Shown: positions 52,580 to 58,787, counted from the first letter of the stretch. The stretch is 64,000 bases of DNA from Desulfobacterales bacterium (GCA_040771865.1 JAXGZF010000008.1:20722-84721); one strand, 5' to 3'. Program-made: numbers and translations. Notes: a model not told the origin generated them from the letters alone.

Positions 52580-53116
52580 TTACATACCCGCAAAATCTGT
52601 GTTCTTGAGTGCGACGAACCGGGCCTCGAGGTCGATCAGCTTCTTTTTCAGAGCCGTGCCTCCGCCGAAGCCGCCGCTTTCGCCGCTGGCGCGAATTACG
52701 CGATGGCAGGGGACGAGAATCGGAAACGGATTTTTGCCCAGGGCGTTTCCGGCAGCCCGGAATGCTTTGGGCCGGCCTACGGCTCTTGCAATATCCCGGT
52801 ACGAGCGCAGGTTTCCATAGGGGATCCGCGCGGTTGCCTCAAGCACGGCCCGCTCAAATCCGGTCAGATCCCGGGTGTGGAGCCATTGCCACGGCGGTGC
52901 GCCGATTCGTTTTCCTTCAAAATAAGCCTGTATCATCTGGACGACCTCGAATAGGGCAGGGGGCGAATCGTTGCGGTCATCAAGGGGCCGGGCCTTCGGG
53001 ACGCTCTCCCCGGGCAGGAGGATGCGGAAAATGCAGAAGGGCTCGGCCCGAAACAGGACGGCGAACGGGCCGAAGGGGCTGTCCGCCCTGCGAAGATCGA
53101 ACGGGTCGAGGGTCAT
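52580..53116 (-). CDS. ogt: Methylated-DNA--protein-cysteine S-methyltransferase (O6-alkylguanine-DNA alkyltransferase)
   Basis: A 178-aa protein with the active-site motif ILVPCHRVIRASG. It also contains the typical YGNLRSYRDIARAVGRPKAFRAAGNALGKNP helix-turn-helix region. Its ATG overlaps the upstream gene's TGA as ATGA at 53113-53116. Confidence 0.9.
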   Translation of the reverse strand: MTLDPFDLRRADSPFGPFAVLFRAEPFCIFRILLPGESVPKARPLDDRNDSPPALFEVVQMIQAYFEGKRIGAPPWQWLHTRDLTGFERAVLEATARIPYGNLRSYRDIARAVGRPKAFRAAGNALGKNPFPILVPCHRVIRASGESGGFGGGTALKKKLIDLEARFVALKNTDFAGM

Positions 53117-54402
53117 GGAAGCAGGCTTTCAAAAGCAGGCAGGTTGCCCTGCGAATCCAGGGTCATGGGCGCCCACTCGGTGAGTCTTGTCAGATCCGGC
53201 CGGGAATCGATTTCGGATTCAAACGCCCTGGAAACCTGAAAAATTTCAAGCTTCGAGGTGTCACGAATGCGAACCGTGCGGGCCGTGTCCAGACAGTCCA
53301 GTCCGAGACCTGCCGCGGCCGCCTGCAGACACTCCCGGTCCGTGTCGAAATACATGGGGACGGCGGCTTTCTCCAGGGAGATCGCTGTCAGGGCGTTGAT
53401 GTAGGTTTTTTCCCGGTCCATGCGTTCCACCAGACGCCGGGTGGTGATGTCGGCCAGACCGATCCCGCTGGCATTGCCGTCAGAGCCGGGCGAAAGGTCC
53501 CGGACAAATATGCGCCGCACATGGGGGTGCGCGAAGAAATCCCCGACAATGTCCCGGTGTCTTCCGGTCACGTTGGAATCCATGCCGATGCCGCTGATGT
53601 CCTTGCCGATGAAATCCACGATCAGCAGGTCGATTCCGTCCACGGGGATTCCGGGCATCAGACGGTAGGCTTCCTTGAGAAGCGCTTTTTCGCGTTCGAT
53701 CATCCGGCCGGGAAGGACCGCCTCCACATGGGCCGGTTGGCCGAATCCGTCCTCGACCACGGCCAGGCCGAAGAGAATGTTCTGATGCGACAGAATCCAG
53801 GCGGCGGCCTTCTCGAGAATGCCGAATCCATGACGAACCGCGCAGCGATGAAAAATCCGGGCGCCCCGGTCTTTTCCCAGACCGATGGTCAGCATCTTGC
53901 AGAGGCCGCTTTCGATGTCGGCGTTGAATTTGGTATGGGGTTTGATTCGATTGACGATTACGATGTGATCCGCATTCAGGGCAGCCTGATCAAGGCATAT
54001 TTCCATTTGGTCCAGCTCGCCGACGCGGCGAACCGTCATGTCCGATACGATGGGCGCCTGCATGGCGGCTTCCGTAATGCCCAGGCGCTTGAGCACGGAA
54101 AGCTGTCCCTTGGCCGATGCGCCCCCGTGGCTTCCCATGGCGGGCACGATAAATGGTCTGAGTCCCAGGGATTTCAGGTGATGAATGCAGTGAAGAACGA
54201 TGCAGTTCAGTTGACGGATGCCCCGGCTTCCGACGGCTACGGCCACAGTCTGCCCGGGGCGGACGCCGGAAGGGCGGACATGCGCCAGAATCTCCTTCAG
54301 GCGCAGGGGAAGGTCTTTAATAGCGGCGGCATGAATCTTCTGCCGGACATATGCCATCTGCGGCGGTCGAAAGGAGCCGAGAGCGTTCCAAATGGATCCC
54401 AT
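53113..54402 (-). CDS. Conserved protein of unknown function (possibly LarA-N/DUF2088-like; family assignment from memory only)
   Basis: A 429-aa ORF with an ATG start and protein-like composition. Conserved-looking segments are FIVPAMGSHGGASAKGQ and VNRIKPHTKFNADIESGLCKMLTIGLGK. It is translationally coupled to ogt. Confidence 0.7.
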   Translation of the reverse strand: MGSIWNALGSFRPPQMAYVRQKIHAAAIKDLPLRLKEILAHVRPSGVRPGQTVAVAVGSRGIRQLNCIVLHCIHHLKSLGLRPFIVPAMGSHGGASAKGQLSVLKRLGITEAAMQAPIVSDMTVRRVGELDQMEICLDQAALNADHIVIVNRIKPHTKFNADIESGLCKMLTIGLGKDRGARIFHRCAVRHGFGILEKAAAWILSHQNILFGLAVVEDGFGQPAHVEAVLPGRMIEREKALLKEAYRLMPGIPVDGIDLLIVDFIGKDISGIGMDSNVTGRHRDIVGDFFAHPHVRRIFVRDLSPGSDGNASGIGLADITTRRLVERMDREKTYINALTAISLEKAAVPMYFDTDRECLQAAAAGLGLDCLDTARTVRIRDTSKLEIFQVSRAFESEIDSRPDLTRLTEWAPMTLDSQGNLPAFESLLP

Positions 54403-54864: not shown

Positions 54865-55824
54865 TCAGGCCCACTGCACGCAGGCCATCAGCGTATGGAA
54901 ATGCATCGGCGGCGCGCCTGTTTCCCGGAACTCATCAGGGTTGTCAAAAAACCGGGCCAGAATATCCATGGCGGTGGTATTCGGCGCCAGATACAGTTCA
55001 AGGGAGATGCCGCCGGTTGAATCGGTTCCGGGACCTGAGAGTTCCTCGCCGGAAAAATCTTTTTCGGACGCCAGCTTTTCGAGGTCTTTCAGAAAAGCTT
55101 CGCGCGACGCCAGAGGACCGGAATCCGCGGTGATGCCTTTTTGCATGAGCAGCCGGCGCGGCTGTGGAATCTGATCCAGTACCGCCTCAAAAACCGCGGG
55201 GCTGTCGGTGACCAGAAGTCCGGGAATTTCCTTGGACCCGGCCATGATTCGGGCCCAGGCGCGAAGACGTTCAAGGGTCATATGGCTTCCGAGGTCCTGA
55301 AGCGGAACGTATCTTTCCACCGAGAATTCGGGCTCTTCCGGACCCTTCATGTGCCTTTGCAGCGCCATTTCGATGGATTGAATGGCTTTCAGGTCCTGAT
55401 CGACCTCCTGGTTCTGAAGGTCCCAGAGCTGGGCGATCAGAAGAAAAAGGCGGCTGTCGAAAAGCGGATCCGTCTCCAACCCGGCCGGTTTTTCATCGGT
55501 CCGGGTTCGAATGTCCCGAAGAATCTGGGTCCGGGAGGATTCGCTGAAAAAGGGGACGGTCTGTCGCTGGGTCTTGAAGAAACGCGCATCCGCCCCCCGG
55601 TGCGCTTCCGACCACTGGCGGAATTCGTGCAGCACGCGGTCCAGGTTGCCCTCATCTCCGGCAATGGGCACGCGGATATCGATGCGGCCATTTTCGGCCC
55701 ATTTTGCAAGAAATTCCGGAATGCGTCCCCAGGCCTGGTAGATGACCGGCGGACCGAAGCATGCGGCCACCGCGGTCAGGGCGGATTCGGCGATCGTGGT
55801 AAATGGAAAGTAAACTGGTTTCAT
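54865..55824 (-). CDS. Hypothetical protein (319 aa), no recognisable motif
   Basis: An ATG start with a GAGGG SD, located 22 nt downstream of the stop of the preceding CysK/CysRS-like gene. The composition is ordinary for a globular protein. Confidence 0.65.
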   Translation of the reverse strand: MKPVYFPFTTIAESALTAVAACFGPPVIYQAWGRIPEFLAKWAENGRIDIRVPIAGDEGNLDRVLHEFRQWSEAHRGADARFFKTQRQTVPFFSESSRTQILRDIRTRTDEKPAGLETDPLFDSRLFLLIAQLWDLQNQEVDQDLKAIQSIEMALQRHMKGPEEPEFSVERYVPLQDLGSHMTLERLRAWARIMAGSKEIPGLLVTDSPAVFEAVLDQIPQPRRLLMQKGITADSGPLASREAFLKDLEKLASEKDFSGEELSGPGTDSTGGISLELYLAPNTTAMDILARFFDNPDEFRETGAPPMHFHTLMACVQWA

Positions 55825-55846: not shown

Positions 55847-58120
55847 TTATTGGGCCTTGTCGTCCTGAAGACGCACGCCCAGAGCGATCAGCTGATTCCT
55901 GATCTCGTCGGCCAGCTTCCAGTTCCTGTTCCGGCGGGCCTCTTCCCTCTGCCGGATCAGATGTTCATAGCCGGGGTCCGGGGAAGGAGTTTCGAAGCTG
56001 AAAATTTCGAGCGCCGCATTGATCCCCTTGAATGCTTCAAGGATCTTCCGAGCGTCCGCGTCGCCGATCTGCCTTTTGAACAGAAGCTTGTTGACGGTTT
56101 TGACGACCTTGAAAATCGAGGCCATGGCCGCCGAAATATTCAGATCGTCGTCCATGGCGGCGACAAAGCCGTTTTTGATGTCATAGAGGAGCTGATCGAT
56201 TTCCGGGTAGGAAATGCCTTCCGGCGTCTGGCTCAGGGCCTGAATGCAGTTGTTCACCCGTTTGAGGGCGCTTCCGGCGTGGTTCAGACTTTCCAGTGAA
56301 AAGACCAGGGGCTTTCGGTAATGGGTGGACAGCAGCCAGTACCGAATGTCTCTTCGCGAGTATCCTTTACTTTCCAGGGTTTCAAGGGTCAGGTCGCCGC
56401 TCGTCAGTTTCTTGCCGTCCGCCAGCACCCGGTCGCTGTGAATCCAGAACCGGGCCGGGGCCTTGCCGGTGACGGCCCGGCAGATGGCCGAGACGTTTTC
56501 ATGGTGGGGAAATATCAGTTCCCGGGCGCTGGTCTGAATGTCAAAGCACTCCCCGAGATACTTCATGGAAATCGCCGCACACTGGGTATGCCAGGAGGGC
56601 CGGACGTTTCCCCATTCGGTTCTAGCGTAAATGCCGCGTTTGAGCTCGGAAAGCCGGGAGCGTTTAAGGAGCGTGAAATCCCTTGGGTTGTCCTTTTCAT
56701 AGTCATCCAGGTCTACTGTGGCGCCGATTCGAATCTTGTTGATGTCGATGCCGGACAGCCTTCCATAATCGGCCAGACGGGAGATGTCGCAATAGATGGA
56801 CCGGAGCTTTTCGTAGGCAAAGCCCTTTTGGACGAGTTTTTTCGTGAGGGCGGTCATCTCCTCGATGTGTTCGCTGGCCCGGGGATAGACATCGGCGGGC
56901 TTGATGCCGAGAAATTCCAGATCCTTGAAGATTGCCTCCAAATGCTTTCGGGTGAATTCGCCCAAGGGTATGCCGGCCTGTTCCGAACCTTGAATGGTCT
57001 TGTCGTCCAGATCCGTGATGTTCATCACGTGTTTGACCGAAAAACCCCTGTATTCAAGATACCTTTTTAAAAGGTCCGAAAACACGAAGCGGCGGCATTC
57101 ATCCAGGCCCATGCGGGCGTGGGCCGTCGGCCCGCAGGTGTACATGGAAACCTTTCCCGGAACCGACGGCTCGAAAGGCTCCTTGGTCCGGGTCAGAGTG
57201 TTGAACAGTTTCAGGGGGGCCTGGTCCCGGACGGTGAAAAGCGGGGTGGAGAGGTACCTTTCCCCGCTGTCCGGAAATATCACGACCATCACGCCGGATT
57301 CCATCTCCTGGGCCTGCCGGGCCGCAACGGCCATGGCGGCGCCGCTGCTCATGCCGACGAAAAGGCCTTCTTCCCTGGCAAGCTTACGGGCCATTTCAAA
57401 GGCGTCTTCATCGTCGATATTGACTTTGAGGTCCAGCCGTTTTTTGTCGTAGATTTCCGGGCAATAGGCTTCCTTCATGTTCTTGAGGCCCTGAATCTTG
57501 TGCCCGAGGTAGGGTTCCACACCGATGATGCGGATGGCGGGATTGTATTCCTTCAGGCGCCGGGACAGACCCATCAGGGTGCCGGCGGTTCCCAGCGTGG
57601 CCACCAGGGCGGTGATCGACCCGCCGGTCTGCTCCCAGATTTCCACGGCCGTTCCCTCGTAATGGGCCTTCCAGTTGGCCTCGTTGTTGTACTGATCCGC
57701 CATGAAATAGGCATCCGGATTTTCCCGCACCAGCCGGTAAACCTCCTCGATGGCCCCGTCGGTTCCAAGGTGGCCCGGCGTCAGAAGAATCTGGGCGCCT
57801 CTGGCCTTGAGAATTTTCCGGCGTTCCTCGCTGGCCGCATCCGACATGGCCAGAAGCAGTTTATATCCCTTGATCGTGCAGACCATGGCCAGACCGATGC
57901 CTGTATTGCCGCTGGTGGCTTCGATCACCGTCTTGTCCGGGGTGAGGGCGCCGGATCTCTCGCCGGCCTCGATCATGTACAGGGCCGCCCGGTCCTTGAT
58001 GGAGCCTCCGGGATTCATGTATTCGATCTTGGCCAGAATCCTGACCTTCGGATTGGGGTTGAGCTTTCGAATCTCAACCAGCGGGGTATTGCCGATGGCA
58101 TCCAGCAGAGAATAACTCAT
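55847..58120 (-). CDS. Fusion protein: cysteine synthase (CysK/CysM-type PLP enzyme) fused to a cysteinyl-tRNA-synthetase-like domain with degenerate HIGH and KMSKS motifs
   Basis: The true start is MSYSLLDAIGNTPLVEI... (ATG at 58118-58120), 4 nt after the tmk stop. The 963-aa track ORF is a spurious upstream extension that overlaps tmk. The CysK half carries GGSIKDRAA (PLP lysine), TSGNTG, GTAGTLMG and SSGAA. The CysRS-like half begins LKLFNTLTRTKEPF...MYTCGPT and continues with NITDLDDK, FPHHEN and MDDDLN. HIGH is replaced by GLDE (57098-57109) and KMSKS by KKLTS (56399-56413). Confidence 0.85.
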   Translation of the reverse strand: MSYSLLDAIGNTPLVEIRKLNPNPKVRILAKIEYMNPGGSIKDRAALYMIEAGERSGALTPDKTVIEATSGNTGIGLAMVCTIKGYKLLLAMSDAASEERRKILKARGAQILLTPGHLGTDGAIEEVYRLVRENPDAYFMADQYNNEANWKAHYEGTAVEIWEQTGGSITALVATLGTAGTLMGLSRRLKEYNPAIRIIGVEPYLGHKIQGLKNMKEAYCPEIYDKKRLDLKVNIDDEDAFEMARKLAREEGLFVGMSSGAAMAVAARQAQEMESGVMVVIFPDSGERYLSTPLFTVRDQAPLKLFNTLTRTKEPFEPSVPGKVSMYTCGPTAHARMGLDECRRFVFSDLLKRYLEYRGFSVKHVMNITDLDDKTIQGSEQAGIPLGEFTRKHLEAIFKDLEFLGIKPADVYPRASEHIEEMTALTKKLVQKGFAYEKLRSIYCDISRLADYGRLSGIDINKIRIGATVDLDDYEKDNPRDFTLLKRSRLSELKRGIYARTEWGNVRPSWHTQCAAISMKYLGECFDIQTSARELIFPHHENVSAICRAVTGKAPARFWIHSDRVLADGKKLTSGDLTLETLESKGYSRRDIRYWLLSTHYRKPLVFSLESLNHAGSALKRVNNCIQALSQTPEGISYPEIDQLLYDIKNGFVAAMDDDLNISAAMASIFKVVKTVNKLLFKRQIGDADARKILEAFKGINAALEIFSFETPSPDPGYEHLIRQREEARRNRNWKLADEIRNQLIALGVRLQDDKAQ

Positions 58121-58124
58121 GATA

Positions 58125-58787
58125 TTATTCAACCTGTTGCTTTGTCTGGATTGAGGATTGAATGAAAACCGACAGAACTTCCAGAATCTGTTCCCGAACC
58201 TGGTTTGAAGTCCGGGTCGCATCAATGACTCGAAACCGCCGGGAATTCCGCCGGGCGAGCTCCAGATAGCCGGTTCTGACCTTTTCATGAAAGGACAGAG
58301 CTTCCTCTTCAAAACGGGATTCGGCCTGATTCCTAGAACCGTCGGCGATCTGGCCGATGGCGCGGTTGAGGCCGGTACGGGCCGGAAGATCCAGCAGCAG
58401 GGTAAGGTCCGGTTGAAGGTCGTCGAAAACCAGTTGATGGAGCCTGCCGGCAAACTCCGGCCCCAGGCCCCGGACCGCTCCCTGATAGACGAGCGTGGCG
58501 TCCAGATACCGGTCGCAGACAACGGTGCGGCCTTCGGCGAGACTTGGCAGAATGACCGTATGAATGTGCTGGGCCCGGTCGGCCATGTACAGCAACAGTT
58601 CGGCCTTCGGATGAAGGCCCCTGCATGCCGGATCGAGCAGGATGGACCGTATTCTGGCCCCGATCGCGGTGCCGCCGGGTTCGCGGGTGGCGATGCACCG
58701 GCACCCCTTTCCTTCCAGAAATTCGACGATATGACCAATCTGGGTGGTTTTGCCCGAGCCTTCGATGCCTTCCAGGGTGATAAACAT
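58125..58787 (-). CDS. tmk: Thymidylate kinase (dTMP kinase)
   Basis: MFITLEGIEGSGKTTQ contains the P-loop, and REPGGT and DRY motifs are also present. The protein is 220 aa. Confidence 0.9.
   Translation of the reverse strand: MFITLEGIEGSGKTTQIGHIVEFLEGKGCRCIATREPGGTAIGARIRSILLDPACRGLHPKAELLLYMADRAQHIHTVILPSLAEGRTVVCDRYLDATLVYQGAVRGLGPEFAGRLHQLVFDDLQPDLTLLLDLPARTGLNRAIGQIADGSRNQAESRFEEEALSFHEKVRTGYLELARRNSRRFRVIDATRTSNQVREQILEVLSVFIQSSIQTKQQVE

Follow-up and report, generated by a model that had tools for sequence, protein, structure and literature searches.

The HisRS-like domain of GCN2, a eukaryotic kinase regulator, senses uncharged tRNA and binds many uncharged tRNAs. HisZ, which is devoid of an anticodon-binding domain, senses histidine. 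It is a HisRS-like protein that acts as a regulatory subunit of the ATP phosphoribosyltransferase HisG (PMC9437257). CysRS-derived proteins outside standard Cys-tRNA-Cys formation have been described as well, namely the mycothiol ligase MshC and CysRS* of some Desulfobacterales (PMC9437257). The latter belongs to a UGA-Cys system, has no anticodon-binding domain and is genetically coupled to SelC* and SelB* (PMC9437257). In canonical CysRS of E. coli, five residues read the anticodon of tRNA-Cys, chiefly G34, as seen in the 1U0B complex (PMC12684709, PMC13449415).

Here we analyze a gene in which a cysteine synthase is fused to a paralog of CysRS. The gene is located in a stretch of 64,000 nucleotides from a Desulfobacterales bacterium (GCA_040771865.1, JAXGZF010000008.1:20722-84721), referred to as the window. 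It belongs to a large, undescribed fusion family of sulfate-reducer-type bacteria, whose members are labeled as ordinary tRNA synthetases in databases. A full-text literature search found no publication describing a CysM/CysRS-like fusion. With moderate confidence, we propose that the protein combines an active sulfhydrylase with a non-catalytic module that binds tRNA-Cys, with or without cysteine, and is probably regulatory.

Results

A CysM-type domain is joined to a full-length CysRS paralog

The gene encodes a protein of 757 aa, starting with an ATG at 58120 and ending with the stop codon at 55847-55849 (Table 1). Orthologs of 757-765 aa align across 100% of its length, which supports the choice of the start codon. 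Pfam assigned residues 6-284 to PALP (E 2.8e-73), residues 316-615 to tRNA-synt_1e (E 2.5e-69), residues 652-689 to DALR_2 (E 1.7e-8) and residues 715-755 to CysS_C. Judged by these matches and by alignment, residues 305-757 are a full-length CysRS paralog with degenerate ATP motifs. The paralog retains the domain order of canonical CysRS (E. coli CysS, 1LI5/1U0B), i.e., Rossmann fold, CP insertion, SCF, helical bundle and anticodon-binding domain. The linker between both halves is the least conserved segment of the protein (mean pairwise identity 0.55). In the AF2 model, pLDDT is below 50 at residues 296-300, representing a disordered 5-residue linker. The global confidence of this model is only moderate (pTM 0.72), and it showed no fixed inter-domain interface able to carry allostery.

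Table 1. Position of the fusion gene, its domains and motifs, and the adjacent genes (coordinates counted from the first letter of the window).
Feature	Position	Strand	Evidence
Upstream neighbor tmk (thymidylate kinase)	58125..58787	-	Thymidylate_kin E 1.2e-47
Whole gene, 757-aa CysM/CysRS-like fusion	55847..58120	-	ORF and translation; full-length ortholog matches
N-terminal CysM/CysK-type cysteine synthase domain, residues 1-296	57233..58120	-	PALP; TIGR01136 cysKM; solved-structure matches
PLP-binding lysine K42 in GGSIKDR	57995..57997	-	Invariant in 123/123 family members and 36/36 phylum-wide fusions
Short inter-domain linker, residues 297-304	57209..57232	-	Least conserved segment; low AF2 pLDDT
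CysRS-like Rossmann fold and CP insertion, residues 305-615, degenerate ATP site	56276..57208	-	tRNA-synt_1e; alignment to 1li5 and 8qhp
C329, equivalent of zinc ligand Cys28	57134..57136	-	Kept 123/123 at order level; lost in 9/36 phylum-wide fusions
HIGH position, reads GLDE, residues 338-341	57098..57109	-	Alignment to CysRS
W510 to C514 (WHTQC), equivalents of E. coli W205 and zinc ligand Cys209	56579..56593	-	Family alignment
FPHHEN region with zinc ligand H539 (H234 in E. coli) retained and a Val (V543) in place of zinc ligand E238	56492..56506	-	Family alignment
KMSKS position, reads KLTSG, residues 571-575	56396..56410	-	Alignment to CysRS
Helical bundle / DALR region, residues 641-712	55985..56200	-	DALR_2; helices predicted at 641-704
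C-terminal part	55850..55984	-	CysS_C match, profile positions 5-45 of 51
R725, R729, W734, D738, R741, anticodon-contact equivalents	55898..55948	-	Alignment; roles from PMC12684709, PMC13449415
Downstream neighbor, conserved 319-aa protein	54865..55824	-	Syntenic; starts 22 nt after fusion stop

The N-terminal half is the only recognizable cysteine synthase of the genome

A sequence-only reading of the window had described residues ~1-300 as an intact CysK/CysM-type enzyme, and the strong PALP match together with the presence of all motifs named then (GGSIKDRAA, TSGNTG, GTAGTLMG, and SSGAA) bears this out. The fusion passes the TIGR01136 cysKM cut-off (365.2 versus 344.15 bits), whereas it stays below the cut-offs of both equivalog models, with 360 versus 394 bits for cysM and 317 versus 351 bits for cysK. 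A search of solved structures with the N-terminal domain returned cysteine synthases as best matches (M. tuberculosis CysM 213, E. coli CysM 238, CysK proteins 246-254 bits), and the domain has the short CysM-type loop where CysK carries an insertion. O-phosphoserine specificity was considered and not adopted from the sequence, since the domain is no closer to the OPS-specific CysM of M. tuberculosis than to E. coli CysM or CysK.

The PLP lysine, the TSGNTG loop, GTxGT, SSGAA and a GHKIQGLKN motif show no variation among 123 order-level and 36 phylum-wide sequences. The invariant GHKIQGLKN, and the fact that the domain is always partnered with a CysRS paralog, distinguish the fusion-type domain from other CysM/CysK sulfhydrylases, which act on O-acetylserine or O-phosphoserine. 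In CysK/CysM the TSGNTG loop clamps the free alpha-carboxylate, and its invariance argues for a free amino-acid substrate. The N-terminal module is best read, as a prediction from its motifs, as an active CysM-type sulfhydrylase.

As far as profile searches recognize such enzymes, the fusion holds the only cysteine synthase of this genome. A search for a stand-alone cysK, which the sequence-only reading had recommended, came back empty: the fusion is the sole cysKM-type gene, and the next-best PALP match is IlvA. Neither a recognizable cysE (serine acetyltransferase) nor a recognizable transsulfuration enzyme was found in the genome. We considered that the fusion might replace CysE, and rejected this idea for lack of a correlation: in ~105 of the 151 genomes of the order, a CysE-like gene occurs alongside the fusion.

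The CysRS-like half has lost its ATP-binding motifs

Motif positions were set by HMMER alignment to E. coli CysRS (1li5) and to 8qhp. The CysRS-like half matches 8QHP with E 3e-93, making it the closest solved relative, and 1LI5 with E 1.3e-72. The landmarks LKLFNTLTR, MYTCGPT, NITDLDDK, FPHHEN, and MDDDLN can all be read, in agreement with the ~450 aa of CysRS similarity noted from sequence alone; the alignment was said to be free of gaps, but a few short ones are present. GLDE lies opposite HIGH, as originally placed. The KMSKS position was likewise recognized as degenerate, although its reading as KKLTS (56399-56413) was one residue out of register. The alignment puts K571-L-T-S-G575 (KLTSG, 56396-56410) there, and the motif is degenerate in either register. 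No indel relative to 1li5 or 8qhp brings HIGH back, a check that had been called for at the outset. The initial list of altered motifs was correct but incomplete, as it missed that the GGGxD position reads TSARE and that the fourth zinc ligand, E238, is replaced by Val.

Family-wide, the consensus at HIGH is HxGE, and GLDE places this fusion among the more degenerate members. At KMSKS the consensus reads K-V-D-E-Q/N, with no family member retaining the second lysine. Acidic residues in the consensus sequences HxGE, TSSxE, and KVDE replace the phosphate-binding His and Lys of canonical CysRS, and the ATP-motif positions vary freely among orthologs. With TIGR00435 (cysS), the fusion scores 332.6 bits against a cut-off of 340, i.e., 7 bits below it, and it fails the MshC model TIGR03447 (164 versus 485 bits). 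The search for a canonical cysS elsewhere was successful. A CysRS of 471 aa with intact HIGH and KMSKS is encoded on another contig of the same genome and reaches 473 bits with Pfam PF01406, compared to 237 bits for the fusion.

It is very unlikely that the CysRS-like half acts as a synthetase, because HIGH, KMSKS and GGGxD are degenerate, the cysS score is below the cut-off and a canonical cysS exists elsewhere; the same had been suspected from the first two motifs. A still working cysteinyl-tRNA synthetase is what the database name "cysteine--tRNA ligase" implies, and the full-length CysRS architecture with its anticodon contacts and a TIGR00435 score that is only 7 bits short would be in line with the name. 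We regard this as barely credible in view of the acidic replacements and free variation at the three motifs, and of the canonical-strength CysRS match that accompanies the fusion here and in 100 of the 104 fusion-bearing genomes of the phylum. The four genomes that have no such match are all incomplete assemblies. The fusion was also considered as the sole active CysRS of some lineages and rejected, since in genome G190 the fused module is fully degenerate and the only strong PF01406 match is a separate CysRS.

A chemical activity that does not depend on the ATP site also has to be weighed. For E. coli and mammalian CysRS, a cysteine persulfide synthase (CPERS) activity has been reported that requires neither ATP nor tRNA nor the zinc cysteines, but all four lysines K73, K76, K266, and K269 (PMC5660078). 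A module that had kept this activity could act on cysteine made by the adjoining domain, and a fused cysteine source would fit a sulfidic organism. However, the four positions read K, Q, K, and S here and K269 is lost throughout the family, which makes a persulfide synthase highly improbable.

The anticodon-reading residues are kept beyond the zinc pocket

In the zinc pocket the fusion keeps C329, C514, H539, and W510, hence three of the four zinc ligands and W205 of canonical CysRS, and T68 is kept as well. At the order level, retention is 100% for Cys28, 98% for Cys209, 100% for H234 (123 of 123 members), 99% for W205 and 98% for T68, whereas E238 is found in only 72% of the family. Among the 36 phylum-wide fusions, W205 is kept in 35 and C209 in 28, and nine have lost Cys28 and/or Cys209. 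At the equivalents of R423, R427, W432, D436, and R439, the five anticodon contacts, all 36 have the identical or a conservatively exchanged residue, and this includes the nine fusions in which zinc ligands and every ATP motif have disappeared. Unlike canonical CysRS, the fusion lacks the last beta-hairpin of the anticodon domain. This terminal hairpin is deleted in 99% of the order-level members, and its loss could weaken or alter anticodon recognition.

Since the five contact residues and the fold are conserved, the CysRS-like half plausibly retains binding of tRNA-Cys, one of the two functions that the sequence-only reading had thought possible. The other one, binding of cysteine, appears less secure, with one of four zinc ligands lost here and the two cysteines not constant in the phylum. 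Conservation of the C-terminal Arg and Asp residues could instead reflect fold stability or another RNA or anionic ligand.

Cysteine feedback usually acts on CysE, which is not recognizable in this genome. Together with the nearly complete order-level retention of Cys28, Cys209, H234, W205, and T68, this would suit a zinc pocket that binds cysteine, the reaction product, and exerts feedback on the synthase like HisZ with histidine, tRNA being irrelevant. We consider such a cysteine-only sensor unlikely, because E238 is a Val in this protein and incompletely kept in the family, Cys28 and/or Cys209 can disappear while the anticodon contacts remain unchanged, and a CysE-like gene accompanies the fusion in most genomes of the order.

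The CysRS-like half has a mean pairwise identity of 0.72, compared with 0.82 for the CysM half. The CP segment 431-505 reaches 0.86 and is the most conserved part of the whole protein. Residues that are invariant specifically in the paralog clade include the second Arg after the HIGH region, YEK and R487. These features leave some room for a module that only serves as a scaffold or for stability, i.e., for oligomerization, localization or docking to another protein, e.g., the canonical CysRS, without a specific small-molecule or RNA ligand. The CP insertion is not a known ligand site, and the clade-specific invariants could form a protein interface. A mere scaffold would leave unexplained why precisely the five anticodon contacts never change among clades whose C-terminal domains have diverged at nearly all other positions, and we give this explanation a small probability only. 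The binding of tRNA-Cys would account for these contacts and remains our preferred reading.

The fusion is ancient and its CysRS paralog has a single origin

Within the same order, ~125 of 151 genomes carry a full-length ortholog of the fusion, and in the phylum the count is 104 of 251. The fusion is thus real and ancient, and not a frameshift or assembly artefact, an objection that had been raised against it. In a phylogenetic tree, a well-supported branch (SH-aLRT 99) separates 35 fusions and four split forms from all canonical CysRS. No member of this clade retains the ATP motifs. The CysRS paralog is hence of single origin and widely distributed; it differs from canonical CysRS in its fusion to CysM and its separate position on the tree, and it coexists with canonical cysS. 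One fusion with intact HIGN and KMSKS motifs (P0126) was evaluated as a potential ancestral state. It was dismissed as such because the tree nests it among canonical CysRS, which points to an independent fusion.

Three split forms were examined (P0137, P0142, P0143). Their CysRS-like gene is located 2-35 nt downstream of a separate CysM gene, which is of the same subtype as the CysM of the fusion and, where compared, 62-69% identical to it. In genome G143, the apparent occurrence of a standalone CysRS-like gene together with the gene of the 319-aa protein found downstream of the fusion probably reflects a contig end.

The split forms bear on the idea that the protein performs tRNA-dependent chemistry, in which an aminoacyl-tRNA-Cys (e.g., Sep-, Ser-, Sec- or persulfide-Cys-tRNA) is docked and then converted or edited by the PLP domain or the dead site. 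A PLP beta-replacement enzyme is, after all, covalently tethered to a module with the anticodon contacts for tRNA-Cys, and the organism lives with sulfide and has a tRNA-Sec gene, indicating selenocysteine use. However, the genome encodes neither SepRS (best sepS match 27.8 bits versus a cut-off of 381) nor SepCysS (best match 39 versus 365 bits); one of the two weak SepCysS matches, on contig C5, is a NifS-type desulfurase. The only tRNA-Cys of the genome is ordinary (GCA, U73, A37), the invariant TSGNTG loop, which binds the substrate carboxylate, points to a free amino acid, and in the split forms the same CysM subtype functions as a gene of its own. The analogy to tRNA-dependent cysteine formation by SepCysS that was drawn from the sequence alone is not supported, given the missing SepRS/SepCysS pair and the invariant loop, and tRNA-dependent chemistry in general appears improbable.

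The adjacency of the downstream gene reflects inherited synteny

The fusion is tightly placed between tmk and a hypothetical gene, as had been stated: the tmk stop lies 4 nt before the start of the fusion, and the gene of the 319-aa protein follows after 22 nt. The 319-aa protein had no match in Pfam or NCBIfam, and an ESM Atlas look-up gave no usable match. Homologs are present in 126 of 151 genomes of the order and follow the fusion in most of them. In genomes without the fusion, the 319-aa protein gene directly follows tmk, so that its adjacency is inherited synteny and no evidence of coupling; we therefore discarded it as a dedicated partner of the fusion. A ferredoxin gene is a further neighbor of the locus. 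To look for a nearby RNA leader or an operator resembling a tRNA, the window and three orthologous loci were compared with Rfam, which gave no match. The genome has just the single ordinary tRNA-Cys gene, so that a second or atypical one was rejected. In sum, neither a regulatory RNA element nor a second tRNA-Cys nor any other partner in support of a sensing circuit was found nearby.

Discussion

We propose a protein of two modules. Module 1 (residues 1-296) would produce free L-cysteine from an activated serine and sulfide as a PLP-dependent CysM-type sulfhydrylase. Module 2 (residues 305-757) is a CysRS paralog that would be catalytically dead, neither binding ATP nor forming Cys-AMP. As judged from the alignments, most of the zinc/cysteine pocket is preserved in this lineage, and module 2 still has the CysRS fold and the complete set of residues for reading the GCA anticodon. 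It may thus bind tRNA-Cys, and possibly cysteine, as ligands without chemistry, and may couple the sulfhydrylase to the demand for tRNA-Cys or to its charging state. The tRNA binding and any regulatory coupling are the parts of this best explanation that we infer.

A more specific version of this model is that the dead CysRS module is a dedicated tRNA-Cys sensor, in which charged or uncharged tRNA-Cys switches the cysteine synthase on or off via the anticodon contacts. We offer this only tentatively, as a possibility that is less likely to be right than wrong. It would resemble the HisRS-like domain of GCN2, also a synthetase-derived pseudoenzyme, in that tRNA would be bound as a signal and not as a substrate. 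The difference would be a proposed specificity for tRNA-Cys and a metabolic enzyme as output. If true, the cognate tRNA would itself act directly as the regulator of a metabolic enzyme. Bacteria would then have an equivalent of GCN2 or T-box logic in a single polypeptide, a type of control that has not yet been described in amino-acid biosynthesis.

A close parallel is HisZ. In both cases an inactive synthetase paralog is physically associated with the biosynthetic enzyme of the cognate amino acid, and the coupling of a paralog without catalytic motifs to CysM exists in fused and in adjacent-gene forms. HisZ is, however, a class II paralog and a separate subunit, while the paralog described here belongs to class I, is usually fused, and has its best-kept functional site in the anticodon-reading residues. 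It would be a class I counterpart of HisZ. MshC and CysRS* differ in another respect, since both are ATP-dependent, active and without anticodon domain, whereas the fusion combines a dead ATP site with a retained anticodon domain. CysRS* is further set apart by its genetic coupling, as the fusion is found next to tmk, the 319-aa protein and a ferredoxin. To MshC and CysRS* the family would therefore add a third kind of CysRS paralog, one that is the mirror image of both, with the chemistry lost and the tRNA-reading part kept.

In 104 of 251 sampled genomes of the phylum, the label "cysteine--tRNA ligase" stands for a cysteine synthase plus a pseudo-synthetase. Consequently, automated metabolic reconstructions will miss cysteine synthesis and count a false synthetase. 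As the only recognizable cysteine synthase occurs here together with no recognizable serine acetyltransferase, transsulfuration enzyme or SepRS, the source of activated serine in these sulfate reducers comes into question. If the module binds tRNA-Cys, the fusion would provide a directly testable case of a metabolic enzyme that is wired to its cognate tRNA.

The fusion gene and its two modules

The fusion gene is a single open reading frame encoding the 757-aa protein P0001. The longest possible reading frame extends upstream to a TTG at 58738, where it overlaps tmk; we assign the start to the ATG at 58120, from which the 757-765-aa orthologs align full length. All sequence motifs listed by the sequence-only reading were found in P0001. 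Using the NCBIfam models, P0001 scored 365 bits with cysKM, above the cut-off of 344, and 332.6 bits with the cysS equivalog, slightly below the cut-off of 340. An AF2 model from a 59-sequence alignment (mean pLDDT 86.2, pTM 0.72) gave a confident prediction for both modules, with a disordered linker at 296-300. The model supports two folded modules; its support stops short of a fixed interface between them.

Positions of features in the window, in P0001 and at split loci
Feature	Position	Strand	Remarks
Fusion gene	window 55847-58120	minus	single ORF, product P0001
PALP	P0001 residues 6-284		Pfam, E 2.8e-73
Class I CysRS catalytic domain	P0001 residues 316-615		Pfam, E 2.5e-69
DALR_2	P0001 residues 652-689		Pfam
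CysRS C-terminal anticodon-binding domain	P0001 residues 715-755		Pfam
319-aa downstream protein	window 54865-55824	minus
429-aa protein	window 53113-54402	minus	weak DUF362 match only; after ferredoxin
178-aa ORF	window 52580-53116	minus	after ferredoxin
Two-gene versions	L090:251-2588; L091:5108-7455; L093:1-1834		CysM gene, then standalone CysRS-like gene with HIGx and KMSRS/KMARS

The ATP site is degenerate and the anticodon contacts are retained

Motif positions in P0001 were read from alignments made with HMMER against 8qhp, the closest solved relative, and against E. coli CysRS (1li5), whose numbering is used here for the zinc-pocket and anticodon-contact residues. These alignments place GLDE opposite HIGH, as had been proposed from the sequence, TSARE opposite GGGxD and HHENV opposite HHENE, and thus the fourth zinc ligand is lost. 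KMSKS is degenerate as claimed, although the proposed register, KKLTS, was one residue off, since K-L-T-S-G stands opposite the motif. No indel brings back any motif in P0001. Residual aminoacylation is very unlikely. A persulfide synthase activity is also weakened as an explanation: P0001 lacks two of the four lysines that this activity is reported to require (PMC5660078).

Within the order-level family (n = 123) the former ATP site has the consensus HxGE, TSSxE and K-V-D-E, placing acidic residues where canonical CysRS has phosphate-binding His and Lys. P0001 (GLDE, KLTSG, V543) belongs to the more strongly eroded part of the family. The zinc pocket is mostly kept in this family (Cys28 100%, Cys209 98%, H234 100%), as are W205 (99%) and T68 (98%), with E238 retained in just 72%. 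Among 36 diverse phylum-wide fusions, KMSKS is intact in P0126 only and is KMSRS in seven, the rest having nothing recognisable; Cys28 and/or Cys209 are lost in nine. Zinc ligands missing from several clades, and E238 missing from P0001 itself, weaken the case for a sensor of cysteine only. In the fusion clades represented by five genomes (G190, G191, G228, G261 and G381; loci L070-L073 and L088) and by the proteins P0128, P0132 and P0133, Cys28, Cys209, E238, HIGH and KMSKS are all gone from the CysRS-like half, which nevertheless retains the residues that contact the anticodon, along with the terminal hairpin.

Equivalents of R423, R427, W432, D436 and R439 are present in 36/36 diverse fusions, with conservative substitutions only (K for R, F/Y for W). 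In analyses of the 1U0B complex these residues contact the anticodon, chiefly G34, and changes at these positions were used to direct CysRS to a different anticodon (PMC12684709, PMC13449415). Mean pairwise identity in the family is 0.82 for the CysM domain, 0.72 for the whole CysRS-like half, 0.86 for the CP insertion and 0.55 for the anticodon-binding domain, within which the invariant contact residues stand out. This order has lost the beta-hairpin that ends the canonical domain. Clade-wide comparison revealed further, paralog-specific invariant residues: a second Arg C-terminal to the HIGH region, Y-E-K at 436-438, P479 and R487. The CysRS-like paralog is under purifying selection with its anticodon contacts invariant. 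Order-level and phylum-wide sequences alike show no variation in the CysM catalytic motifs, GHKIQGLKN among them, and the fusion carries an intact cysteine synthase.

Cysteine synthesis in the source genome

The source assembly (2.98 Mb, 13 contigs, estimated completeness 98.3%) encodes a separate canonical 471-aa CysRS on another contig, with CHIGHARS, HGGGKDL and EKMSKSLGN. The CysRS-like half is a paralog without the ATP site, beside this separate, working cysS. We found no stand-alone cysK; the fusion is the sole cysKM-type gene, and the next-best PALP match is a threonine ammonia-lyase. Cys/Met-metabolism PLP enzymes gave nothing beyond weak partial matches, and neither SepRS nor SepCysS was found; of two weak SepCysS-like matches, one lies on contig C5 and belongs to a NifS-type desulfurase. 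Since no other such genes were found, cysteine synthesis in this genome has one recognisable route, through the CysM domain of the fusion. The SepCysS-like, tRNA-dependent cysteine formation suggested by the sequence-only reading is weakened on two counts, the absence of SepRS and a CysM loop for the free carboxylate that is still intact. Serine acetyltransferase was not found with TIGR01172 or SATase_N; a CysE-like gene occurs together with the fusion in ~105/151 genomes of the order, and the lack of cysE is confined to this lineage. The obvious candidate for the activated serine in this genus is O-phosphoserine.

The genome has one tRNA-Cys gene, which is ordinary (GCA, U73, A37). This gene (C5:81822-81896) lies ~1.5 kb from a NifS-type cysteine desulfurase gene (C5:83437-84633), probably by coincidence. 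On contig C8, whose positions 20722-84721 form the window, a single tRNA-Sec (UCA) gene lies outside the window at 180000-180097 and indicates that the organism probably uses selenocysteine.

Distribution and origin of the fusion

More than 120 non-redundant full-length fusion proteins with 68-95% identity are present in public data, which rules out an assembly or frameshift artefact; the named ones are labelled 'cysteine--tRNA ligase'. Full-length orthologs occur in ~125/151 genomes of the order (54-95% identity) and in 104/251 genomes of the phylum (46-68%). A canonical-strength PF01406 match besides the fusion was detected in 100 of these 104; the remaining four genomes are 62-95% complete.

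Maximum-likelihood analysis of 90 CysRS and CysRS-like sequences gave a tree in which a branch with SH-aLRT 99 separates 35 fusions and four unfused forms from all 49 canonical enzymes; the degenerate paralog seems to have arisen once. P0126 (L025:8001-10307), a 768-aa CysM-CysRS fusion of an uncultured organism with fully intact HIGN and KMSKS, is placed among the canonical CysRS; an active CysRS was therefore joined independently to the same CysM subtype in this protein, which may be truly bifunctional. The genes for the unfused P0142, P0143 and P0137 each follow a separate CysM gene after 2-35 nt; where compared, the product of that CysM gene shares 62-69% identity with the fusion's CysM domain. 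Hence, the partnership of CysM and the CysRS paralog has both fused and split forms.

Neighbouring genes

The fusion lies in a conserved block of SurE, an OB/HD protein, tmk, the fusion, a 319-340-aa protein, a 2x[4Fe-4S] ferredoxin, a DUF362-like protein and a DNA_binding_1-domain protein, which distant members share whole or in part. The 319-aa protein has no Pfam, NCBIfam or Atlas match. Its homologs (126/151 order genomes) almost always directly follow the fusion, or tmk where the fusion is absent, and its adjacency to the fusion is thus synteny. In the four fusion loci that were read from end to end, the 61-62-aa ferredoxin comes after the 319-aa-type protein. A 176-185-aa DNA_binding_1-domain protein is encoded just downstream of the ferredoxin at the orthologous loci L029 and L030, and L030 also has the DUF362-like protein. 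Neither the window nor three orthologous loci contained an Rfam element.

Discussion

A 2022 review that covers synthetase paralogs names MshC and CysRS* as the only ones for CysRS (PMC9437257), and our full-text literature search found no published description of this fusion. New here are the apparent single origin of the degenerate paralog, with P0126 fused separately, the split two-gene forms, the phylum-wide spread nearly always alongside canonical cysS, and the downstream 319-aa orphan as a syntenic neighbour. Equally new is that the universally retained site is that of the anticodon contacts, not the zinc pocket. We infer that tRNA-Cys is a ligand of the paralog, with cysteine perhaps a second one in this order, and that the paralog would do no chemistry itself. 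Most plausibly, it would couple cysteine synthesis to tRNA-Cys status.
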